DNA of 64,000 bases, from positions 14,260,001 through 14,324,000 of the forward strand of contig OZ024745.1 in NCBI GenBank assembly GCA_964016885.1, in the 5' to 3' direction. This document shows positions 8,946-62,325 of the stretch, in pieces; position 1 is the first letter of the stretch; every line of letters starts with the position of its first letter. Position numbers and translations under genes: made by a program. Under the pieces are notes generated by a model. The model was not told the origin of the DNA. It saw only the letters and a list, made by a program, of their open reading frames with translations, and did no database searches. This DNA comes from Eledone cirrhosa. Taxonomy: Eukaryota.

Positions 8946-11900
8946 CTATTGTATAGCTGTGGGTGTAGTAGTGGGTATAGTGGTGGCTGTAGTGGTGGTT
9001 GTAGTAGTGGGTATAGTGGTGGCTGTAGTGGTGGCTGTAGTGGTGGATATAGCTGTAGTGGTGGTTGTAGTAGTGGCTGTAGTGGTGGCTGTAGTGGTGG
9101 CTGTAGTGGTGGCTGTAGTGGTGGATATAGCTGTAGTGGTGGCTGTAGTGGTGGGTATAGTGGTGGCTGTAGTGGTGGATATAGCTGTGGTGGTGGTTGT
9201 AGTAGTGGCTGTAGTGGCGGTTGTAGTACTGGCTATAGTGGTGGCTGTAGTGGTGGCTGTAGTGGTGGCTGTAGTAGTGGCTGTAGTGGTTGCTGTAGTG
9301 GTTGCTGTAGTGGTGGCTGTAGTGGTGGCTGTAGTGGTGGCTGTAGTGGTTGCTGTAGTGGTGGCTGTAGTGGTGGATGTAGTGGTGGCTGTAGTGGTGG
9401 CTGTAGTAGTGGCTGTAGTGGTTGCTGTAGTGGTGGCTGTAGTGGTGGCTGTAGTGGTGGCTGTAGTGGTGGCTGTAGTGGTTGCTGTAGTGGTGGCTGC
9501 AGTGGTGGCTGTAGTGGTGGCTGTAGTGGTGGCTGTAGTAGTGGCTGTAGTGGTTGCTGTAGTGGTGGCTGTAGTGGTGGCTGTAGTGGTGGCTGTAGTG
9601 GTGGCTGTAGTGGTTGCTGTAGTGGTGGCTGTAGTGGTGGCTGTAGTGGTGGCTGTAGTGGTTGCTGTAGTGGTGGCTGTAGTAGTGGCTGTAGTAGTGG
9701 CTGTAGTAGTGGTTGTAGTAGTTGCTGTAGTGGTGGCTGTAGTGGTGGCTATAGTGGTGGCTGTAGTGGTGGCTGTAGTAGTGGCTGTAGTGGTGGCTGT
9801 AGTGGTGGCTGTAGTGGTGGCTGTAGTGGTGGCTGTAGTGGTGGCTGTAGTGGTGGCTGTAGTGGTGGCTGTAGTGGTGGCTGTAGTGGTGGCTGTAGTG
9901 GTGGCTGTAGTGGTGGCTGTAGTGGTGGCTGTAGTGGTGGCTGTAGTGATGGCTGTAATGGTGGCTGTAGTGGTGGCTGTAGTGGTGGCTGTAGTGGTGG
10001 CTGTAGTGGTGGCTGTAGTGGTGGCTGTAGTGGTGGCTGTAGTGGTGGCTGTAGTAGTGGCTGTAGTAGTGGCTGTAGTAGTGGCTGTAGTAGTGGCTGT
10101 AGTAGTTGCTGTAGTGGTGGCTGCAGTGGTGGCTGTAGTGGTGGCTGTAGTGGTGGCTGTAATGGTGGCTGTAGTGGTGGCTGTAGTGGTGGCTGTAGTG
10201 GTGGCTGTAGTGGTGGCTGTAGTGGTGGCTGTAGTGGTGGCTGTAGTGGTGGCTGTAGTGGTGGCTGTAGTGGTGGCTGTAGTGGTGGCTGTAGTGGTGG
10301 CTGTAGTAGTGGCTGTAGTGGTGGCTGTAGTGGTGGCTGTAGTGGTGGCTGTAGTGGTGGCTGTAGTGGTGGCTGTAGTGGTGGCTGTAGTGGTGGCTGT
10401 AGTAGTGGCTGTAGTGGTGGCTGTAGTAGTGGCTGTAGTGGTGGCTGTAGTAGTGGCTGTAGTGGTGGCTGTAGTAGTGGCTGTAGTAGTGGCTGTAGTG
10501 GTGGCTGTAGTGGTGGCTGTAGTGGTGGCTGTAGTGGTGGCTGTAGTGGTTGCTGTAGTGGTGGCTGTAATGGTGGCTGTAGTGGTGGCTGTAGTGGTGG
10601 CTGTAGTGGTGGCTGTAGTGGTGGCTGTAGTGGTGGCTGTAGTGGTGGCTGTAGTGGTGGCTGTAGTACTGGCTGTAGTGGTGGCTGTAGTGGTGGCTGT
10701 AGTGGTGGCTGTAGTGGTGGCTGTAATGGTGGCTGTAGTGGTGGCTGTAGTGGTGGCTGTAGTGGTGGCTGTAGTGGTGGCTGTAGTGGTTGCTGTAGTG
10801 GTTGCTGTAGTGGTGGCTGTAATGGTGGCTGTAGTGGTGGCTGTAGTGGTGGCTGTAGTGGTGGCTGTAGTGGTGGCTGTAGTGGTGGCTGTAATGGTGG
10901 CTGTAGTGGTGGCTGTAGTGGTGGCTGTAGTGGTGGCTGTAGTGGTGGCTGTAGTAGTGGCTGTAGTGGTGGCTGTAGTGGTGGCTGTAATGGTGGCTGT
11001 AGTGGTGGCTGTAGTGGTGGCTGTAGTGGTGGCTGTAGTGGTGGCTGTAGTGGTGGCTGTAGTGGTGGCTGTAGTGGTGGCTGTAGTGGTGGCTGTAGTA
11101 GTGGCTGTAGTAGTGGCTGTAGTGGTGGCTGTAGTAGTGGCTGTAGTGGTGGCTGTAGTGGTGGCTGTAGTGGTGGCTGTAGTAGTGGCTGTAGTAGTGG
11201 CTGTAGTGGTGGCTGTAGTGGTGGCTGTAGTGGTTGCTGTAGTGGTGGCTGTAATGGTGGCTGTAGTGGTGGCTGTAGTGGTGGCTGTAGTGGTGGCTGT
11301 AGTGGTGGCTGTAGTAGTGGCTGTAGTGGTGGCTGTAGTAGTGGCTGTAGTGGTGGCTGTAGTAGTGGCTGTAGTGGTGGCTGTAGTACTGGCTGTAGTG
11401 GTGGCTGTAGTGGTGGCTGTAGTGGTGGCCGTAGTGGTGGCTGTAGTGGTGGCTGTAGTAGTGGCTGTAGTAGTGGCTGTAGTGGTGGCTGTAGTAGTGG
11501 CTGTAGTGGTGGCTGTAGTGGTGGCTGTAGTGCTGGCTGTAGTGGTGGCTGTAGTGGTGGCTGTAGTGGTGGCTGTAGTGGTGGCTGTAGTGGTGGCTGT
11601 AGTAGTGGCTGTAGTAGTGGCTGTAGTGGTGGCTGTAGTACTGGCTGTAGTGGTGGCTGTAGTGGTGGCTGTAGTGGTGGCTGTAGTGGTGGCTGTAGTG
11701 GTGGCTGTAGTGGTGGCTGCAGTGGTGGCTGTAGTGGTGGCTGTAGTGGTGGCTGTAGTGGTGGCTGTAGTGGTGGCTGTAGTGGTGGCTGTAGTGGTGG
11801 CTGTAGTGGTGGCTGTAGTGGTGGCTGTAGTGGTGGCTGTAGTGGTTGCTGTAGTGGTGGCTGTAGTGGTGGCTGTAGTGGTGGCTGTAGTGGTGGCTGT

Positions 11901-14117
11901 AGTGGTTGCTGTAGTGGTGGCTGTAGTGGTGGCTGTAGTACTGGCTGTAGTGGTGGCTGTAGTGGTGGCTGTAGTGGTTGCTGTAGTGGTGGCTGTAGTG
12001 GTGGCTGTAGTGGTGGCTGTAGTGGTGGCTGTAGTGGTGGCTGTAGTGGTGGCTGTAGTGCTGGCTGTAGTACTGGCTGTAGTGGTGGCTGTAGTGTTGG
12101 CTGTAGTGGTGGCTGTAGTGGTGGCTGTAGTAGTGGCTGTAGTGGTGGCTGTAGTGGTGGCTGTAGTGGTTGCTGTAGTGGTGGCTGTAGTGGTGGCTGT
12201 AGTGGTGGCTGTAGTGGTGGCTGTAGTGGTTGCTGTAGTGGTGGCTGTAGTGGTGGCTGTAGTACTGGCTGTAGTGGTGGCTGTAGTGGTGGCTGTAGTG
12301 GTTGCTGTAGTGGTGGCTGTAGTGGTGGCTGTAGTGGTGGCTGTAGTACTGGCTGTAGTGGTGGCTGTAGTGGTGGCTGTAGTGGTGGCTGTAGTGGTGG
12401 CTGTATTGGTTGCTGTAGTGGTGGCTGTAGTGGTTGCTGTAATGGTGGCTGTAGTGGTGGCTGTAGTGGTGGCTGTATTGGTTGCTGTAGTGGTTGCTGT
12501 AGTGGTGGCTGTAATGGTGGCTGTAGTGGTGGCTGTAGTGGTGGCTGTATTGGTTGCTGTAGTGGTGGCTGTAGTGGTTGCTGTAGTGGTGGCTGTAGTG
12601 GTGGCTGTAGTACTGGCTGTAGTGGTGGCTGTAGTGGTGGCTGTAGTGGTGGCTGTAGTAGTGGCTGTAGTAGTGGCTGTAGTGGTGGCTGTAGTGGTGG
12701 CTGTAGTGGTTGCTGTAGTGGTGGCTGTAGTGGTGGCTGTAGTGGTGGCTGTAGTGGTGGCTGTAGTGGTGGCTGTAGTGGTGGCTGTAGTGGTGGGTGT
12801 AGTATTGGCTGTAGTAGTGGCTGTAGTGGTGGCTGTAGTGGTGGCTGTAGTGGTGGCTGTAGTATTGGCTGTAGTGGTGGCTGTAGTGGTGGCTGTAGTG
12901 GTGGCTGTAGTGGTGGCTGTAGTGGTGGCTGTAGTGGTGGCTGTAGTGGTGGGTGTAGTGGTTGCTGTAGTGGTGGCTGTAGTGGTGGGTGTAGTATTGG
13001 CTGTAGTAGTGGCTGTAGTGGTGGCTGTAGTGGTGGCTGTAGTGGTGGCTGTAGTATTGGCTGTAGTGGTGGCTGTAGTGGTGGCTGTAGTGGTGGCTGT
13101 AGTGGTGGCTGTAGTGGTGGCTGTAGTGGTGGCTGTAGTGGTGGCTGTAGTGGTGGCTGTAGTGGTGGCTGTAGTGGTGGGTGTAGTATTGGCTGTAGTA
13201 GTGGCTGTAGTGGTGGCTGTAGTGGTGGCTGTAGTGGTGGCTGTAGTATTGGCTGTAGTGGTGGCTGTAGTGGTGGCTGTAGTGGTGGCTGTAGTGGTGG
13301 CTGTAGTGGTGGCTGTAGTGGTGGCTGTAGTGGTGGCTGTAGTGGTGGGTGTAGTATTGGCTGTAGTAGTGGCTGTAGTGGTGGCTGTAGTGGTGGCTGT
13401 AGTGGTGGCTGTAGTATTGGCTGTAGTGGTGGCTGTAGTGGTGGCTGTAGTGGTGGCTGTAGTGGTGGCTGTAGTGGTGGCTGTAGTGGTGGCTGTAGTG
13501 GTGGGTGTAGTGGTTGCTGTAGTGGTGGCTGTAGTGGTGGCTGTAGTAGTGGCTGTAGTGGTGGCTGTAGTGGTGGCTGTAGTGGTGGCTGTAGTATTGG
13601 CTGTAGTGGTGGCTGTAGTGGTGGCTGTAGTGGTGGCTGTAGTGGTGGCTGTAGTGGTGGCTGTAGTGGTGGCTGTAGTGGTGGGTGTAGTGGTTGCTGT
13701 AGTGGTGGCTGTAGTGGTGGCTGTAGTAGTGGCTGTAGTGGTGGCTGTAGTGGTGGCTGTAGTGGTGGCTGTAGTATTGGCTGTAGTGGTGGCTGTAGTG
13801 GTGGCTGTAGTGGTGGCTGTAGTGGTGGCTGTAGTGGTGGCTGTAGTGGTGGCTGTAGTAGTGGCTGTAGTGGTGGCTGTAGTAGTGGCTGTAGTGGTGG
13901 GTGTAGTGGTTGCTGTAGTGGTGGCTGTAGTGGTGGCTGTAGTAGTGGCTGTAGTGGTGGCTGTAGTAGTGGCTGTAGTAGTGGCTGTAGTAGTGGCTGT
14001 AGTGGTGGCTGTAGTAGTGGCTGTAGTGGTGGCTGTAGTGGTGGCTGTAGTAGATGTCGTTCTTTTCATCACTGTTATTGTTGCCTCCAATGAAAGTACT
14101 GAGTTAACAATAATAGG
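8946..14117 (-). CDS. Probable terminal exon of a mucin-like Thr/Ala-rich protein, (TTTA)n, ~1720 aa
   Basis: Open frame across ~425 12-bp units. The commonest variants (ACC/ACT, GCC/GCA) are synonymous in this frame. In-frame acceptor TTTCATTGTAG| at 14128-14118, TAG stop at 8948-8946, AATAAA at 8913-8908. Confidence 0.65.
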   Translation of the reverse strand, partial: PIIVNSVLSLEATITVMKRTTSTTATTTATTTATTTATTTATTTATTTATTTATTTATTTATTTATTTATTTPTTTATTTATTTATTTATTTATTTATTTATTTATTTATTTANTTATTTATTTATTTATTTATTTATTTATTTPTTTATTTATTTATTTATTTATTTATTTANTTATTTATTTATTTATTTATTTATTTATTTPTTTATTTATTTATTTATTTATTTATTTANTTATTTATTTATTTATTTANTTPTTTATTTATTTATTTATTTATTTATTTATTTANTTATTTATTTATTTATTTANTTPTTTATTTATTTATTTATTTATTTATTTATTTATTTATTTANTTATTTATTTATTTATTTANTTPTTTATTTATTTPTTTATTTATTTATTTATTTATTTATTTANTTATTTATTTATTTATTTANTTPTTTATTTATTTATTTATTTATTTATTTATTTATTTATTTATTTATTTATTTATTTATTTASTTATTTATTTATTTATTTATNTATTTATTTATITATTTATTTATNTATTTATTTATITATTTATTTATNTATTTATTTATTTATTTASTTATTTATTTATTTATTTATTTATTTASTTATTTATTTATTTATTTATTTATTTATTTATTTATTTATTTATTTATTTATTTANTTATTTASTTASTTATTTATTTATTTATTTATTTATTTATTTATTTATTTASTTATTTATTTATTTATTTATTTATTTATTTATTTATTTATTTATTTATTTATTTATTTATTTATTTATTTATTAATTTATTTATTTATTTATTTATTTASTTATTTATTTATTTATTTATTTATTTATTTATTTASTTATTTATTTATTTATTTATTTATTTATTTATTTATTTATTTATTTASTTATTTATTTATTTATTTATTTATTTATTTATTTATTTATTTATITATTTATTTATTTATTTATTTATTTATTTATTTATTTATTTATTTATTTATTTATTTATTTATTTATTTATTTATTTATTTATTTATITATTTATTTATTTATTTATTTATTTATTTATITATTTATTTATTTATTTATTTATITATTTATTTATTTATTTATTTATTTATTTATITATTTATTTATTTATTTASTTATTTATTTATTTATTTATTTATTTATTTATITATTTATTTATTTATTTATTTATTTATTTATTTATTTATTTATTTATTTATTTATTTATTTATTTATTTATTTATTTATTTATTTATTTATTTATTTATTTATTTATTTATTTATTTATTTATTTATTTATTTATITATTTATTTATTAATTTATTTATTTATTTATTTATTTATTTATTTATTTATTTATTTATTTATTTATITAITTATTTATTTATTTATTTATTTATTTATTTATTTATTTATTTATTTATTTATTTATTTATTTATTIATTTATTTATTTTTTTATTTATTTATTTATTTATTTATTTATTTATTTATTTATTTATTTATTTATTTATTTATTTATTTATTAATTTATTTATTTATTTATTTATTTATTTATTTATTTATTTSTTTATTTATTTATTTATTTATTTATTTATTTATTTATTTATTTATTIASTTTATTATTTTTTTAISTTTATTIPTTTATTTAISTTTATTTATTTATTTATTTTTTTAISTTTATTTATTIPTTTTTTTATTIPTTTPTAIQ
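8950..14052. repeat. 12-bp tandem repeat (GTAGTGGTGGCT)n, ~5.1 kb
   Basis: Directly visible in the sequence. Confidence 0.99.
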
Positions 14118-17859: not shown

Positions 17860-18032
17860 AATTTAATGATAGGGACCCCAGTCCTATCATCTCATTACTA
17901 CAGCTGAGTAAACTGGAGCAACGTGAAATAAAGTGTCTTGCTCAAGGAAACAACACATTACCCGCTCCGAGAATTGAACTCATAACCTTTCGATTGCAAG
18001 CCCAATGCTCTAACCACTAAGCCATGCGCCTT
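17860..18032 (-). mobile_element. tRNA-derived SINE (family B)
   Basis: Minus strand reads TGGCTTAGTGGTTAGAGC A-box, GAGTTCAATTC B-box, then TTGAGCAAGACACTT body. Confidence 0.75.
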
Positions 18033-43703: not shown

Positions 43704-43760
<57 letters not shown>

Positions 43761-43852
43761 ACGAAGGAAATGTGGTAAGGAACCAGGTGAACCATAACGC
43801 ACCAAAGTACTCAATACTTAGAGTAGTAGAGTGGGTAATAGGAACGAGTAGG

Positions 43853-43947
43853 ACCCCGACGGCTGAGCTCAAGCCGTTTCGACGGCTAATTCTGGACTAA
43901 ATGAAAATTTTTATCCTGGTATTTGAATAGCCGAGCTTCTCAGGGGT
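43853..43947 (-). ncRNA. Type-I hammerhead ribozyme in 3' pLTR
   Basis: Same fold as 48403-48498. Confidence 0.75.
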
Positions 43948-44830
43948 TAATTCCACATATGGTAAAAGTGATTATCACAAGGATTGGTCAAAAGTTTGTT
44001 GTTGAGACATACTAATTCTATCATGGCAATTTGTGGAGGGAAGGGGTAGCTGAACCTGCCAGTAGAAGAAAGAGGGAGAGGGGGTGGAAGAAACCCAGTC
44101 GTGCGTTGATAGTGCCAACTACGGCTGGGCAGGAGGTCAAAGAAGATACTAGGGGGGAGGGGAGGAAGTCGAAACAATAAGTAAAACAATATGGGGTAAA
44201 TATATAGAAAAATACCGGGAGTGTTAAAAAACAATTAAGTGTAAAGAAAAAAACAATTTCTGGTTACTATAACCTAAGGACAGCTATCAAGTCTCTCACT
44301 GGTACTGCTAGACTAAAGAAAGGTTTACTAGGTGGGACGGAATTATAATGAAACCCTTTTAAGAGGTATAAGTAAACAACCGAATATATCTTACGGTGAC
44401 GGGTCAACAAGTGGGGAGCCAAAATACTAAAGAAACTACCACGAAATAATAAATCAGAGTCCCGAGACCAATACGAAATAAAGGTTTCTATCCCAGGCAC
44501 AAGGCCAGCAACCACCCAGTGCAAAAAAAACTAAAAAAACTAATACGAAATAATAATTCAGAATCCCGAAAAAGAATACTAATACTATCTTTAAGGGTGC
44601 CGCCACGCTACAAAAATTCTAGTGCAAACTACATAAATGCTCGTACGAAGTAAAATTTGATACGGATAATTAATTCAGAAGAAAGAGGACTGGGGTGGAA
44701 GGACTAGGGAGGGATGGGGGGAAGAAGGAAATATAGAGGAAGTGATAAAAAGATATAGAAGAAGATATTAGGTCTACCTTTGCAAGCAGGGGTTACCTGA
44801 TACAAAATCGGCTAGTGGGGTGTTATAGCC

Positions 44831-46986
44831 CTAGTCTACCCCCGGGTCATTATGGGGTTTGAGGGCGAGGTATGTCCTACGCAATCGGTGTTTACATGCA
44901 GTTACAAGTTCATCTTTCTTGTTTAGGAGTTGGTCCGTCGAGAACAGCATTTGTAAAGTTTCCTCCGAGCATAAATTGCACGGACGGCGTCCTCTCGTAT
45001 AAGAGTTGGCTCTGGACAGTAAGCTCCAAGTGAGATCATAGGTAATATTGTTATCCTTGAAGTCCCATATGTGGCTCGAAAGTGTAGTGGCGTGACGCCG
45101 GGCCGGGTTTCGGAAGGTATGTCTGTGTTGGTATAGCCGGGTCTTGAAGTCACATGCGGTTAATCCTATATAGGCTTTGTTGGATGTGTCCGTCCTCACG
45201 TTGCACTGGTAGATCACATTACAATCTCTGCATCTGTTGTTGAGGGGGAAAATGGATCCATCAGGACAGTTGCACCTCCGGGTCGGCTCTCCACTGCTAT
45301 TTCGGTTATTTCTTCTATGGGGGTTGAGTTTTTTGTTGTTAGAGGAGACGATGTTTTGTGCAAAGTTTGGTGTGGTGCTGTAGGAGAGTTTGATGGTATT
45401 TTTGTTAATTATGTTGTGGTAGCGGTGTTGTAGTGGGAAGTGTTTTTCAATGAGCCTAAAGAAGATTTTCCCGATAGGAGTTGTCACCTCGGCGTTGTGG
45501 GGAGGATTGAACCATGTTACGTTGCGTGAGCGGCGGTGTCGCCTGCTGGTTCCGCTAATGGAAGCTGGACAGTAGGATATTTCCTCCCGGAAACCACTCC
45601 GCTTGAGGGCCTGGTTGTAGTAAGGCGCATGTTCCTCGAATATCTGCTCATTAGCTGACAAACGAGATATGCGGAGGGAGATATTTTTAACCAGGTTATT
45701 GGTGATGTTCCTAGGATGGTTTGACCGGCGGTGGATGTAGTGCAGGTTGTCGTTAGGTTTCCTGTATGGGTAGTACAGATCATTATCGAGGTCAAGGGTA
45801 ACATCCAGGAAGTTAACTCGGGTCAGGTACGTTTGTAGGGTTATTTTAAATCCCCAGTCGCGGAAGAAGCTGATTAATTGTTTACGGACCCGATCTGTAC
45901 TACTGGGGTTGTACCCTTTAAGAGTAAGGAGCCCGTCATCACGGTACAATCCACCGCCGAATGCAGGAAACAAATCGGTGAGTTTGGCTATTAGGAATAA
46001 TCCTATAAGATCTGTGACCTCTGCCGAATCCGTCGCGCCCATGCTGACGTTGAAGGGTGAGTCGGGAGCTCTCTTTATCCATTTGGAGTTGTCGAAGAGT
46101 AAGACTGTCTTCCTGGCGTGGAGGATGATGTTTCTTTCCTGGTCGGTGATGGGCACAAGTGTTTCGGCGAAGTCCAAGGCAGCCGTAAGTAGCGGTAAGG
46201 TGATTGAAGCATAATAACTCTCTATGTCAAACTGGATGAATTTAGTGTCTCGTTTTTCCTCCATATTGCTGAACCATGAGATCATTTCCTGGGTATTGAC
46301 CCATAGGCTAAGTCTGGCGTGTTGCTTAACTTTTGGTATCACGCGGTCTAGGATTTTTTTGCTGATTCTCCCTATGTCGGACTTCGTTGGGTTTATAAGC
46401 CTGATAGAAGGTTTGCGGTCGAAATCGGATTTGTGGTCCTTCAGTGTGAAGTAGGGTGTCCGTGGGTCTAGGGGTTCTGTGCGGTCGGCGACCCCGAGGC
46501 TGGAGGTAATTTGTTGTCCATCTCGATTTATGTCCTCGATGCATGAGTGGTTAGCCTTTTTATAGGTCGAGTTTAGGCTGCTCCTGATCAGTGTGTGGTA
46601 TCTGTCGGGGTTGACAAAGTAGAGGTTACCAGTTTTATCCGAGTGCACCATGATGTCGTTGGTGTTATCATACTCTGTTAAGTTGCTACGGAGATTTTGT
46701 AGGAATCGGTTGTGTCTGGGTTTGAATTTAATGTTCTTGACCAGTTGGAAAAGATCATTCTCGAAGGGTGAGAGTATAGGGTTCGGAGGGGGAGATTTGT
46801 AGGTAATAAATCCGAATCTCTCCTTGGTACCGAAGTCCTGATTGTCGCAATATCTGTCGTAGAAAAAAGTCCTCCATCTAAGTCTTTTCGCAAAAGATCG
46901 ATTTTTTGCGTGAGCATCTGAAGGTAAAGTTTTTTCGGTGGGACTGGGATGTTCTTGGTAGAGAAGTGGATGTTGTGTTTTCGCAT
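44831..46986 (-). CDS. PLE polyprotein (RT + GIY-YIG). True start probably ATG 46986, with a 1-nt frameshift near 46898
   Basis: MRKHNIHFSTKNIPVP in one frame, then FAKRLRW, SDKTGN, FDIESYY, GLYRDDGL, VNFLDV, CNC, VIY..YIG, CNLC..E, LN..E..CKH in the 786-aa frame. Confidence 0.9.
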
Positions 46987-47171
46987 GGTGCGGGTGAAAG
47001 AACTTGAGCTTAGCGGAAAAGTCTGGATACGGAGTGGTATGGTCGGAAAGTGCACTACTACGGGAATAGGAGCTAGATAACGAAGGAAATGTGGTAAGGA
47101 ACCAGGTGGACCATAACGCACCAAAGTACTCAATACTTAGGGTAGTAGAGTGGGTAATAGGAACGAGTAGG

Positions 47172-47267
47172 ACTCCGACGGCTGAGCTCAAGCCGTTTCG
47201 ACGGCTAATTCTGGACTAAATGAAAATTTTTATCCTGGTATTTGAATAGCCGAGCTTCTCAGGGGGT
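47172..47267 (-). ncRNA. Type-I hammerhead ribozyme in 5' pLTR
   Basis: Same fold as 48403-48498, with one stem I mismatch. Confidence 0.7.
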
Positions 47268-48402
47268 AATTCCATATATGGTAAAAGTGATTGTCACAAG
47301 GATTATAATATCTTCTATATCTTTTTATCACTTCCTCTATATTTCCTTCTTACCCCATCCCTCCCTAGTCCTTCCACCCCAGTCCTCTTTCTTTGTCGTC
47401 GTCAATTTTACTTTCTCGCCCACCCGAGGTAGCCCCTCGGTCCCTTGTAGCCTCAGTACCACCACCCCCTTCCCCTAATCTATGATATATTTGGCCAACT
47501 CCACTTTTTATAGCAGTTGTGTTAGACCCCGGATACTAGAATTCTTATCCGATGGCCGAACCTTTTCCGTGCTTTCTATATTTCGTAGTGGTATCTTTGC
47601 TTTAATTTCTCGTATATCAGTATTTATTTTTTTTTATTATTTTTTTTTGGGGGGGGGGGGGGGGGATTCTGAATTAATTTTCCGTATCAAATTTTACATA
47701 GACTTCGTACGAGCATTTATGTAGTTTGCACTAGAATTTTTGTAGCGTGGCGGCACCCTTAGAGATAGTATTAGTATTCTTTTTCGGGATTCTGAATTAT
47801 TATTTCGTATTAGTTTTTTTTTTTTTTTGCACTGGGCGGTTGCTGGCCTTGTGCCTGGGATAGAAACCTTTATTTCGTACTGGTCTCGGGACTCTGATTT
47901 ATTATTTCGTAGTAGTTTCTTTAGTATTTTGGCCCCCCACTTGTTGACCCGTCACCGTAAGATATATTCGGTTGTTTACTTATACCTCTTAAAAGGGTCT
48001 CATTATAATTCCGTCCCACCTAGTAAACCTTTCTTTAGTCTAGCAGTACCAGTGAGAGACTTGATAGCTGTCCTTAGGTTATAGTAACCAGAAATTGTTT
48101 TTTTCTTTACACTTAATTGTTTTTTAACACTCCCGGTATTTTTCTATATATTTACCCCATATTGTTTTACTTATTGTTTCGACTTGCTCCCCCTCCCCCT
48201 AGTATCTTCTTTGACCTCCTGCCCAGCCGTAGTTGGCACTATCAACGCACGACTGGGTTTCTTCCACCCCCTCTCCCTCTTTCTTCTACTGGCAGGTTCA
48301 GCTACCCCTTCCCTCCACAAATTGCCATGATAGAATTATTATGTCTCAACAACAAACTTTTGACCAATCCTTGTGATAATCACTTTTACCATATATGGAA
48401 TT

Positions 48403-48498
48403 ACCCCCTGAGAAGCTCGGCTATTCAAATACCAGGATAAAAATTTTCATTTAGTCCAGAATTAGCCGTCGAAACGGCTTGAGCTCAGCCGTCGGGGT
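48403..48498 (+). ncRNA. Type-I hammerhead ribozyme in inverted pLTR
   Basis: ACCCC-CUGAGAA-G..CGGCUA[loop]UAGCCG.C-GAAA-CGGCU ugagcuc AGCC-GUC-GGGGU. Predicted cleavage after 48493. Confidence 0.78.
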
Positions 48499-48508
48499 CC
48501 TACTCGTT

Positions 48509-48543
<35 letters not shown>

Positions 48544-48548
<5 letters not shown>

Positions 48549-49127
48549 AACGAGTAGGACCCCGACGGCTGAGCTCAAGCCGTTTCGACGGCTAATTCTG
48601 GACTAAATGAAAATTTTTATCCTGGTATTTGAATATTTAGAAATGTAAGTTATCGCCGTATTTTGACTAAAGAAATTAAAGACATTATTTAGCCTGATAG
48701 TGGGGTTAAAACCCTCTAAGAAATGGAAAAAAAGATGAGTATTGACGTACATAGGAGTCGAACCCACATCTTTGGTTATCCGGACCACTGTGCTACCATC
48801 TTACTTGACATTACAGTCGCTAAGTTTATAGCTTCTAATTTGAATGGAAAAAGACGGGTGATGTGTTGGTGTAAATGGTAGCACAGTAGTACGGATAACT
48901 AAAGATGTGGGTTCGACTCCCATGTACGTCAATACTCATCTTTTTCCATTTCTTAGAGGGTTTTAACCCCACTATCAGGCTAAATAATGTCTTTAATTTC
49001 TTTAGTCAAAATACGGCGATAACTTACATTTCTAAATATTCAAATACCAGGATAAACATTTTCATTTAGTCCAGAATTAGCCGTCGAAACGGCTTGAGCT
49101 CAGCCGTCGGGGTCCTACTCGTTCCTA
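48544..49127. mobile_element. ~580-bp fold-back element: tRNA-like head + body + PLE pLTR 3' part, in inverted duplicate
   Basis: Arms 48544-48804 and 48871-49127 are near-perfect reverse complements, with (TA)n on both sides. Confidence 0.85.
48860..48931 (+). tRNA. tRNA-like sequence (pseudo-tRNA / SINE head)
   Basis: 72-nt cloverleaf: D-arm GTGT/GCAC, T-arm GTGGG-TTCGACT-CCCAT, wobble-rich acceptor stem, degenerate anticodon arm. Confidence 0.6.
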
Positions 49128-49516
49128 TATATATATATATATATATAGTCAAAATACGGCGATAGCTTACATTTCTAATAATTTCAAATCAACTCGCTGT
49201 TTCGAAAATATTCTTACTATATATATATACAGTTCAAGAATAACCAATCTTAAAGAGAGAGATGGAGATAGGCGAGGAGAGGAGAAGAGAGATTGGTGAA
49301 TTAGTTAGAAGCCAAAGTGTAAAGGCATGTGCTCAATGTGCAATATGCAGTGGAAGGCAGCTAGGTGGCTGGGTTCATGCAGAGGTTAGGTGCACAGAGC
49401 TGGAAATATTAATTAGTTAAGACCACACATTTCACAAGGAAGACATTACTAAAAGATTGTCAACATAGTTTTAGTTTGATGTAAGGAATGTAGAGAATAT
49501 TAATAATATTAATAAT

Positions 49517-49700
49517 AATTGTTTCTACTTTAGGCACAAGGCCAGCAATTACCCACTGTATTGCTGGTACTTTATTTTATCGACCCCGTAAGGATGAAAG
49601 GCAAAGTCAACCTCGGCGGGATTTGAACTCAGATCGTAAAGGGACGTAACTATGCTGGAAAGCATGGCGTCCGACCCTCTATTGATACTGCCAATCCACT
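49517..49700 (-). mobile_element. tRNA-derived SINE (family A) inserted in (AAT)n
   Basis: Full copy, absent from the mirror arm. Confidence 0.88.
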
Positions 49701-49737
49701 GCCCTTCTTAATAATAATAATAATAATAATAATGTTC

Positions 49738-49856
49738 GTTTACAATTGTTTCGCTACTCCATATAATGTTTCTGGATCAAATGATTATAGATCATTATTG
49801 ATCTGGTTCAGTTGAAAATAATTAACTTAGGTACAATTAGAGCAGCTCATCGGAAC
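49738..49856 (-). ncRNA. Type-I hammerhead motif (core CCGAUGA)
   Basis: GUU-CCGAUGA-GCUGCUC[long insert]GAGUAGC-GAAA-CAAUUG-UA-AAC. Confidence 0.7.
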
Positions 49857-50044
49857 TTCTAAAGGGATATAAATTAAAATAAGAAAAGAATGTTACATGA
49901 ATATAATGTTCCATATATTGGTATTTCACTATGGTGTCCTGGGTATATCCATTGTCTGCCATAGTCGAGCAGTATTCTTCTGTCGAGGCTGCATTGTGTG
50001 AGATCTGCCTATCATGTAACATTCTTTCCTTATTTTAATTTATA

Positions 50045-50162
50045 TTCCGATGAGCTGCTCTAATTGTACATAAGTTAATTATTTTCAACTGAACCAGATC
50101 AATAATGATCTATAATCATTTGATCCAGAAACATTATATGGAGTAGCGAAACAATTGTAAAC
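50045..50162 (+). ncRNA. Type-I hammerhead motif (mirror copy)
   Basis: As 49738-49856, with stem I shortened at the 5' junction. Confidence 0.65.
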
Positions 50163-51578
50163 GAACATTATTATTATTAATATTATTATTATTATTCTCT
50201 ACATTCCTTACATCAAACTAAAACTATGTTGACAATCTTTTAATAATGTCTTCCTTGTGAAATTTGTGGTCTTGTTTTGCTTAACTAATGAATATATATA
50301 TATACATATATTTACATATCTTTATAGAAAGGAGAAAATATAAGAACAAAAGTAAGTTTAATTAAACGTGTATCTTAGGCCGTATTTACAAATGAGCTCT
50401 GTAAAGAGTGAAGCATAGTTTTTATTGAAGTTGTATAACATGTAACCTCCATAATTCAATAATAATTTCACCTAAATAACATATTCTTTTCTTCTGCCTT
50501 CACAAAAGTATGATATTAATATTATTACAGACTTGCAACTCCCCGAAACATATCTGTATGACACATTAACCTTTGCATACATAATATTCTCTTTTTTATC
50601 CTCAACAATAATGTGTATTATGTTGTACTTCCGAGGTTGTCTTCTAAATACGTCTGCAAATCATTCTTCATTAGAATTGTGAACTTCATAGTAAATTTCC
50701 CTATTTCCCTGCTCAGCCCATAAACCCCATAAACCTTGATTTACAGAAGTTCAAGCTCAGCATAAATTACACTTCACCAGTTCTTCAATAAATATTACAA
50801 GTATTACAACTTCTTCCGTGAATAATTAATATATAGATAAATCAAAACATTCATCTATAATCGAAGATTTTAAAAAGCAGTTAAATTGGTGGTAAGAATC
50901 TCTTATGAGAGCTGGACAGTAGAAGGTCTTCAGAGAAGAAACTCCCAGGAGAGCTGGACAGCAGAGGGTCGTCAAAGAAGAAACCTATCTTAAGCAAGTG
51001 TTTCGGTACTTAAGTGTTTTTGCTAGTTAAATGAACAGTACTGTAGTATAGCATTGCGCATTGGATCTTACGAATTGAATATTCAGAAAATATTTATGAC
51101 AATATTTATTTTGAAAGTGGAAGTAGTCTCTTCAAAAGTACAGACACTATGTTGATATTTCGCAACATGGTTATTCCTAAATAATATGAAAATATTTTCT
51201 TATCATGAAGAGAAACATTCAACACCCCACTTCTTAAAGCGCCCCCCCCCCACATACATTAGTTTGTATACCAGGACAATATATGGAATATTGTCCCTTA
51301 TCAACCATATTTACTTCTTTATCATTGAAATAGGTTCAATATTTATCTCTAAACTTTGTGTGGTTTCTCATAAATGCGCCTCGGGGTAGCTGCTGTAACT
51401 CAGTGAGACACAAATGTCAAATACACAAGAACAAAGGAAAACAGGCTACGTTATCAGAAACAATTTAGATATATCTCATCGTTCGCTTCCGTTGACGTTC
51501 AAAGAATATCGTTTGTATAAGAAAAAAAAAATGCTTTGCCATTGAAGCTTAATTTAAACCTTCTATCAGCAATGATTG

Positions 51579-55702: not shown

Positions 55703-56049
55703 TTAATTGACAATATTTTTTCGAAACATGTACAATGCTTGGAAAGTTTTACCAATTTTATGGTGACAACTACTGAATAATTTGTTTTTGTTGTTGATTA
55801 AATTGTCATAATTTGTAATTATCTGTAGAGTCTCGAAATTACAAAGATTGCAATTTTGCGAAATAGTTGCGTTCTGATAGGAATTGTTTTTTTTTAACTT
55901 GGTCCAAAAGATGGAGTATTTAGTATTATTGTCCTTTAAAGACCATATTAATTGCGAAAGTGAAGTTGAACATTTCTTATCTGGTTTAGTAAAAGTCAGT
56001 CTGTGATTAAACCAACGTTCCTTAAATTTAAATGAAGTGGCACCAATAT
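55703..56049 (-). pseudogene. 5'-truncated Naiad-type GIY-YIG endonuclease C-terminal half (second family)
   Basis: YIGATSFKFKERWFNHRLTF...TSLSQLIWSLKD...CNLCNFE...LINNKNKLFSSCHH is colinear with the C-terminus of the 44831 ORF. Confidence 0.85.
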
Positions 56050-58141: not shown

Positions 58142-58152
58142 AAAGAGTCGGG

Positions 58153-58242
58153 ACTCGACGGCTGACCTCTTGCCGTTTCAACAGTTAGTTCCAGACTGAT
58201 TGCCGAATGGGTTGGTGGTTTACTGACTGTATCACCAGGGGT
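58153..58242 (-). ncRNA. Diverged relative of the Naiad pLTR hammerhead (core CUGGUGA)
   Basis: 58152-58198 resembles 43852-43898. Stem II ACAGUCAGU/ACUAACUGU, with GAAA and GUC present. Confidence 0.55.
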
Positions 58243-61794: not shown

Positions 61795-62089
61795 GTAGAT
61801 AAATCTACCAAAATATACGGTAGTGTCCAATCCGTATGAAGAACTCAATGTAATCCAAATATCATGAAGACAGCATATATATGTGTAGGTATGTATATTC
61901 CCTCTGATAGTTTGTAAAAATTTTACATAGATCTATATGATATACATACCAACACACACATATATATCCTAGAAACGATCGTAAAAGGATGAATTTTTTA
62001 ATATAAGGAACTGTTTCTTTGTTTTTATTCATTATATTTATTAATTTATATATATATATATATATATATCATATGTATATATATATTTA

Positions 62090-62286
62090 TATAGAAAAAT
62101 GTATGACCCCGACGGCAGAGCTCAAGCCATTTCGACGGCTATTTCTGGACTCCAGAAATAGCCGTCGAAACGGCTTGAGCTCTGCCGTCGGGGTCATACA
62201 TTTTCCTATTACCCACTCTATTACCCTAAGTATTGAGTACTCTGGTGCGTTATGGTCCATCTGGTTCCTTACCACACCTCCTTCGT

Positions 62287-62290
<4 letters not shown>
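62090..62290. mobile_element. Naiad-type PLE pLTR fold-back in (TA)n (diverged subfamily)
   Basis: Arms 62090-62149 / 62151-62210, then an ~80-bp tail matching 43758-43838. Confidence 0.9.

Positions 62291-62325
<35 letters not shown>

Follow-up and report, generated by a model that had tools for sequence, protein, structure and literature searches.

A dispersed 271-bp tRNA-headed repeat of Eledone cirrhosa, likely moved by Penelope-like enzymes, and its local fusion to a neighbouring Penelope-like element

Insertions of Penelope-like elements (PLEs) are described, in the parts of PMC8557442 consulted here, as carrying partial tandem copies, an inverted 5'-truncated copy, a "tail" of 30-40 bp and a bias towards (TA)n targets. 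According to the consulted portion of PMC11167929, a PLE protein cuts both strands of AT-rich DNA, the tail is bounded by two internal RNA sites at which PLE reverse transcription starts, and hammerhead cleavage is not needed by the protein in vitro. The repeat family that we describe in this report, a 271-bp unit with a tRNA-like head, can be set beside several known kinds of small repeat. The metazoan non-LTR retrozymes are, like this family, non-coding, dispersed and built of tandem units (170-400 nt), and they have been proposed to be moved by PLEs (PMC7229834 and 10.64898/2026.07.22.740005, both to the extent of the text consulted); each of their units, however, contains a type I hammerhead and is related to a pLTR, whereas in the unit of the 271-bp family no hammerhead core and no pLTR homology were detected, a tRNA cloverleaf being present instead. 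The non-autonomous PLEs of Chlamys, MRC1 among them, resemble the family in their pLTR-like partial tandems, PLE-type insertion and lack of a protein, but in the consulted parts of PMC8557442 they generally share the 3' sequence of an autonomous element and are given no tRNA head, while for the family no such shared end was found among 13 PLE-like ends and three Hydra families.

Classical tRNA-derived SINEs are likewise short and non-coding and, as does the family, combine a tRNA-related head containing A and B boxes with an unrelated body; the family differs from them in that it apparently lacks a LINE-like or simple-repeat tail of its own, shows hardly any target duplications, has two 3' ends that are internal, and is accompanied by an inverted copy in 47 of 67 insertions. 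The hammerhead repeats of Schistosoma that are named Sm-alpha have a promoter of tRNA origin. These SINE-like repeats share with the family their tandem units and, putatively, a promoter internal to the unit, and in the consulted text of PMC6765202 they are apparently transcribed by Pol III and need tandem units for propagation; they nevertheless carry an active hammerhead, and no mobilising enzyme or PLE-type anatomy is named in that text.

The window that we analysed is a stretch of 64,000 nt from E. cirrhosa (GenBank assembly GCA_964016885.1, contig OZ024745.1, positions 14,260,001 to 14,324,000), and coordinates given without a locus name refer to it. An earlier, sequence-only reading had pointed to a tRNA-headed element fused to the pLTR of a neighbouring PLE (Table 1), and had explained it either as a Pol III SINE that parasitises the PLE machinery or as a one-off template switch. 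With good confidence, we interpret the locus as one insertion of a dispersed 271-bp tRNA-headed repeat, itself likely moved by a PLE RT-endonuclease, in which the pLTR piece is likely a one-off copy of the neighbour.

Table 1. Features of the fused locus and of the adjacent PLE, in window coordinates
Feature	Position	Strand	Remarks
Hydra-clade PLE, main copy	43760..47304	-	3' end CCTTCGTT followed by (AT)n at 43760
RT and endonuclease frame, 794 aa stop to stop	44831..47215	-	145 homologues, best E 1.9e-184
Inverted 5' partner copy of PLE (3' UTR and pLTR)	47311..48513	+	ends TTCCTA followed by (TA)n
Type I hammerhead-like motif of pLTR	48404..48503	+	core C3-A8
(TA)n target	48512..48547	.	centre of perfect 214-bp palindrome 48422-48635
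Left-arm pLTR piece, 92 nt	48544..48635	-	identical to adjacent PLE end
Inverted 5'-truncated copy of tRNA-headed family, unit 66 to about 232	48636..48804	-	stops at usual second 3' site
Family 3' end (unit 265-271) and 54-nt leader of next unit	48799..48859	+	partial tandem
tRNA-like head, 72 nt, with A- and B-box sequence	48860..48931	+	ARAGORN, Rfam
Body of tRNA-headed family	48932..49036	+	T5 run 48941-48945; first ~20 nt pairable with leader
Right-arm pLTR piece, 92 nt	49037..49128	+	1 difference from adjacent PLE end; (TA)n then to 49147
Genuine 3' end of tRNA-headed family, unit 199-271	49146..49218	+	terminus TTCTTAC followed by (TA)n

The neighbouring PLE is of the Hydra type by its motifs alone, which comprise DKT, RWR, a CxC linker and a C-terminal endonuclease-like region. 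It agrees with the Hydra clade of EN+ PLEs, as characterised in the consulted parts of PMC8557442, in DKT, RW(R/K), the C-terminal endonuclease, the hammerhead, the (TA)n targets and a length under about 3.6 kb, but the linker of the clade is CxCX5C and that of the neighbouring copy, which is also apparently frameshifted, CxCX5F. The frameshift is probable because homology to the Hydra N-terminus (46678-47136, minus strand) and the RT lie in different frames. Pfam and PDB searches with the PLE frame gave no matches; a 21-mer from the PLE tail has 23,998 exact matches in the genome, and the inverted partner stops about 80 nt before the main end. The hammerhead core is C3-A8 in all three window copies (48404-48503, 47157-47270 and 43838-43950) and U3-A8 in six of six others; the U3-A8 variant is described in the consulted portion of PMC4209133, and to judge from its core the window hammerhead may be a poor cutter.

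Other repeats lie elsewhere in the window. Three further short pLTR insertions of the neighbour's family occupy positions 1-178, 58142-58197 and 62057-62292, an endonuclease-domain fragment of another Hydra-like family lies at 55757-56044 (minus strand), and a stretch of ~45 nt in the PLE 3' UTR (44471-44523, 47828-47874) is like the 3' end of the abundant SINE used below as a control. The 5 kb from 9000 to 14000, with a GC skew of about +0.7 and an AT skew of about -0.54, are probably a G/T-rich tandem array.

Much of the anatomy proposed for the fused locus was confirmed. The cloverleaf at 48860-48931 is called by ARAGORN and scores 38.3 bits with Rfam RF00005 (cut-off 29), and an A-box-like and a B-box sequence are present inside it. 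An anticodon loop is expected to have U33 and a purine at position 37. The loop of the family, CCGGATA (ACGGATA in this copy), has neither, and the head would therefore be unlikely to act as a working tRNA. It was wrong to take the tRNA as the start of the unit, since the segment upstream of it (48799-48859), which overlaps the left arm by a short microhomology, consists of the family 3' end and a 54-nt leader. The pLTR piece lies next to the body as described (49037-49128, 99% identity to 48422-48513), it terminates at the claimed TTCCTA before (TA)n, and both fused pieces lack the CUGA half of the hammerhead, as had been noted for this unit. Two observations offered earlier in favour of a template switch also hold: a segment of ~35 bp recurs (49003-49045 again at 49146-49189), and a TTCAAAT-like microhomology is present at the body/pLTR junction. 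The inverted upstream copy exists, with arms 48525-48731 and 48941-49147 that differ by one mismatch in 207 nt, but it is not the clean duplicate that had been supposed, because the inner ~70 nt of the two arms differ by 4 substitutions and a 2-nt indel compared with the single difference in the outer 207 nt (substitutions in inner versus outer part, Fisher p=0.014). That the hairpin is an assembly artefact from a fold-back read, for which the perfect 214-bp palindrome might speak, is hardly conceivable when 5 sites and an indel separate the two arms, when a paired anticodon-stem change in the right-arm head is found also at another locus (L005), and when inverted pairs are the norm in the family.

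The question of whether the fusion represents a family or a single event was addressed by searching the genome (3.0 Gb, 1796 contigs). The body/pLTR junction pattern has 2 matches, both at the 48544-49218 locus, and 1042 exact matches run on instead into sequence of the 49181-49218 type; a junction unique to this locus, with other tRNA-head copies continuing into the 49181-49218 sequence, is the outcome that the sequence-only reading had itself named as telling against a SINE with a borrowed pLTR 3' end, and the option of a one-off template switch is the one that it favours. At the other top-match loci, 28 of 28 have part or all of the 49181-49218 continuation and none has the pLTR, and in a DNA search the head was accompanied by a match past query base 188 at the 48544-49218 locus only. 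The fused 92-nt pLTR pieces are 0 and 1 base off the adjacent PLE end, whereas all seven other full-coverage pLTR copies among the loci examined differ by 3-9 bases, which argues that the piece was copied locally. Of three variant motifs common to both arms, two are absent from 159 other loci and the third is present in one of them. The alternative that the head-body-pLTR unit is itself a SINE family using a PLE pLTR end could draw on the occurrence of the junction twice at the locus, and on the differences between the inner arm parts, which are as expected from two RNA templates. It is extremely unlikely, however, in view of the confinement of both genome-wide junction matches to this locus, the identity of the pLTR piece as the neighbouring PLE's own allele, and the termination of both arms at TTCCTA without the 80-nt tail of the PLE main ends.

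The fusion of tRNA-like and Penelope sequences is a local accident, for which we infer a fold-back and two switches. Fold-back of the (TA)n end beside the PLE was probably followed by the copying of 92 nt of pLTR, and synthesis would then have switched to the family RNA, at the usual second start site of that RNA and at a TTCAAAT microhomology. A second switch, during cDNA synthesis or in later replication, might have copied the left arm into the main copy, and would account for the 207-nt near-perfect arm and the ~33-bp repeat. Beside the locus, a SINE copy (49506-49699) lies amid nested inverted duplications (49419-49519/50173-50273 and 49709-49900/50012-50191), and this 49419-50273 region looks like another template-switch-like rearrangement.

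As defined from its other copies, the family has a unit of 271 bp that consists of a 54-nt leader, a 72-nt tRNA-like cloverleaf, a body and a 3' end of its own, TTCTTAC(TTG), which in tandem copies joins the next leader directly. Exact matches in the genome number 1042 for the normal continuation, 1725 for an 18-mer of the family 3' end and 232 for the tandem junction; the family has at least about 1,000 copies, and may already be present in a repeat library. The copies are uniform, departing by 2-5% from the column majority, and include subfamily-like variants; 20 of the 21 cloverleaf pairs are standard, and covariation is limited to a single paired change, G29-C41 to A-T, present in 2 segments, from which selection cannot be inferred. 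The head presumably resembles tRNA-Arg. No parent tRNA emerged from the 16 Rfam matches in the genome, of which the best has 44/74 identities to the family head, or from a relaxed pattern with 2 matches, both family-like. The hammerhead core CUGA...GAAA is absent from both strands of a natural trimer of the unit, and Rfam returned no ribozyme family up to E 10 at two loci (L021 and L029). A minus-strand hammerhead candidate (CUGAUAG...GAAA) was dropped, since stem I is missing and the cleavage position is occupied by a G.

The intact cloverleaf, a T5 terminator such as a real Pol III gene would have, and the uniformity of the copies might also be expected if a host tRNA-like gene array with a cellular job gave rise to passive, PLE-made retrocopies, so that the dispersed copies did not themselves propagate. 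We consider such an origin quite unlikely: no long array was seen, tandems reaching at most 3-4 units in 159 loci with the 232 tandem junctions genome-wide, the anticodon loop is non-canonical, there are subfamily-like variants, and mobilisation by a PLE would still be required.

Other tRNA-related sequences were encountered in the course of these searches. A tRNA-like gene at positions 1500-1573 of each of the loci L227 and L229-L237 scores 63-71 bits in its best copies, with anticodon calls for Ala, Val, Thr and Asp, and sits in a longer dispersed repeat whose flanks are common to the 10 loci; most of these contain inverted repeats spaced by about 1.1-1.2 kb, as would a DNA transposon that carried a tRNA. 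At loci L226 and L228, tRNA-Thr-like genes are clustered, 7 and 5 of them within 3 kb, and some are degenerate. A second, unrelated tRNA-headed repeat family is represented by 4 copies (window 17967-18024, minus strand, and L238-L240) without the PLE flank pattern.

The mode of insertion was studied in the first 72 of the 1042 matches, on contig C1, which correspond to 70 loci and, with L041 and L045 (second matches within one insertion) and L039 (flanks the same as those of L040) left out, to 67 insertions. This sample comes from a single contig and was chosen by a 22-mer over unit 219-240, so that every locus necessarily has one or more long 3' ends; the segment ends are those given by BLAST and may be off by a few bases. 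An inverted partner copy is present in 47 of the 67 insertions, and 36 of these 47 pair an end at unit 262-273 with one at 204-237, the remaining 11 being mostly broken by internal deletions or ending elsewhere. There are, accordingly, two fixed 3' sites, at unit about 225-235 and about 270, whose spacing of 35-45 nt corresponds to a PLE-type tail. Partial tandem, pLTR-like copies occur in 15/67 insertions, the right end falls at unit 268-273 in 57/67, and (TA)n is found on both sides in 45/67 and at the 3' (right) end in 54/67. A non-simple target duplication was seen in 1/67, a microsatellite-like and doubtful case, though (TA)n flanks could mask short ones; this scarcity, and a 3' end that lies inside the tandem unit, depart from what defines a classical SINE.

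Two controls were treated in the same terms. For the neighbouring PLE (first 30 matches), 16/30 insertions are inverted, 15 of the 16 with two ends about 80 nt apart, and 28/30 have TA at the 3' end. For an abundant SINE, a single family (first 30 of 67,624 matches), an adjacent inverted copy was found in 0/30, TA on both sides in 2/30, and strict target duplications in 6/30, with more by eye. The difference in inversion between the tRNA-headed family (47/67) and the control SINE (0/30) has a Fisher p of 5e-12.

LINE twin priming inverts a non-overlapping 5' part. In the tRNA-headed family, by comparison, the two arms are copies of one and the same part of the unit, each begun at its own 3' start site, and this, together with the position of the 3' end inside the tandem unit, the lack of a tail of its own and the absence of inversions from the 30 control SINE insertions, makes it quite unlikely that the family is a conventional SINE that owes its movement to a (TA)n-targeting LINE and its inversions to twin priming, even though the tRNA head with A and B boxes, the fixed 3' end and the variable 5' truncation are what such a SINE would show and target duplications could hide in the (TA)n flanks. 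The partial tandems, inverted partner, one-end tail and (TA)n target that mark non-autonomous PLEs are all found in the family, and we hold it to be very likely that it inserts as they do. The earlier proposal of a tRNA-headed element that parasitises PLE machinery thus survives in the family's own insertion anatomy, but not in the borrowing of a pLTR end, and the family, which is tRNA-derived and without a ribozyme, likely parasitises the enzymes of Penelope elements and not those of LINEs.

Attempts to find the partner enzyme through a shared end gave no significant alignment of the family 3' region with 13 PLE-like ends (best z 0.97), and a best E of 0.79 against 30 loci of two other Hydra families. 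The genome contains at least two further Hydra families with intact frames, plus fragments of others. Hydra tails here measure about 75-80 nt as against 35-45 nt in the tRNA-headed family, a mismatch that means that the neighbouring PLE family may not be the main mobiliser; by analogy with its description in the consulted parts of PMC8557442, a short-tailed, hammerhead-free clade such as Naiad would be a plausible source of the partner. At locus L182 (1031-1521) there is a reciprocal chimera, unique in the genome, in which a GCTG microhomology links the 3' UTR of a relative of the neighbouring PLE with the final 25 nt of the tRNA-headed family. That the locus represents a PLE subfamily which has adopted the family end was considered and rejected, with 1 copy found and a second match that proved to be a plain family copy. 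This single case suggests that PLE and family RNAs are able to meet in one reverse transcription event. The family is best read as a tRNA-derived, non-autonomous element that owes its movement to a PLE enzyme but has borrowed no PLE end.

Some clues to the RNA can be drawn from the copies themselves. Among 115 5' ends, 47 fall at unit 113-123, immediately downstream of the T-loop, and 13 at unit 49-57, where the tRNA begins; both clusters exceed uniform expectation. The inversion joints are often CATG (7 loci) or ACGT palindromes. These ends and joints are compatible with stalling at a T-arm that is folded or modified, or with no more than the microhomology at hand. A 5' end of the RNase Z type, at unit 127, is a misfit to the hot spot at 116-121. 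The leader and trailer can pair over about 18 bp, and in 63 segments with both strands of this stem there are 26 A-to-G changes in the leader compared with 3 T-to-C changes in the trailer, while among leader A's outside the stem A-to-G changes number 4/514. This skew is a weak hint of A-to-I editing or G-U-tolerant drift, because 14 of 27 changes are at one site, the copies are related, and other kinds of change are elevated in the same place (11 A-to-C/T). The folding z-score of the 271-bp unit is modest (-1.76), with the circular fold no better than the linear one.

From these features we infer a cycle in which a tandem unit would be transcribed into multimeric or circular RNA, either by Pol III from the A and B boxes reading through the T5 run or by read-through from a host or PLE promoter. 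A PLE protein would nick both (TA)n strands, and reverse transcription would begin at two internal RNA positions, unit about 225-235 and about 270; both cDNAs would often stall at the T-arm of the folded tRNA and be joined by 4-nt palindromes (CATG, ACGT) into an inverted pair. The T5 run directly 3' of the head would be expected to halt Pol III before the body, which speaks against a simple Pol III model.

The family departs from the definitions of retrozyme and classical SINE in one defining feature each, and is best classed among the non-autonomous PLE passengers, as a further variant. In the literature searched, outside which lie Repbase, Dfam and most subscription papers, no account was found of a PLE passenger that has a tRNA head and lacks a ribozyme. 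More tentatively, and with some doubt, the family might be placed in a new SINE class, as a Pol III-driven tRNA mimic that parasitises PLE enzymes without borrowed PLE sequence and in which the cloverleaf takes over the part that the hammerhead and the pLTR promoter play in retrozymes. Under such a classification, the cloverleaf would supply both the promoter and, by way of host tRNA-processing enzymes, unit-length or circular RNA, and inside the cell this RNA would adopt a fold and perhaps carry modifications, of which the position of the RT stop, immediately downstream of the T-loop, and the A-to-G skew in the leader-trailer stem give a hint.

Annotation pipelines would probably label repeats of this kind as ordinary SINEs or satellites. 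The non-autonomous PLE passengers described in the consulted parts of the literature have a hammerhead or a PLE-like end, and this family appears to be without either. SINE biology rests on LINE partners, to which the family, if our reading of it is true, would add a SINE-PLE partnership; it would also mean that PLE proteins recognise RNA by something besides pLTR sequence. Small, natural and mapped at two start sites, the 271-nt unit lends itself as a substrate to the published in vitro PLE assay, and the question of what a PLE protein recognises can thereby be tested directly.
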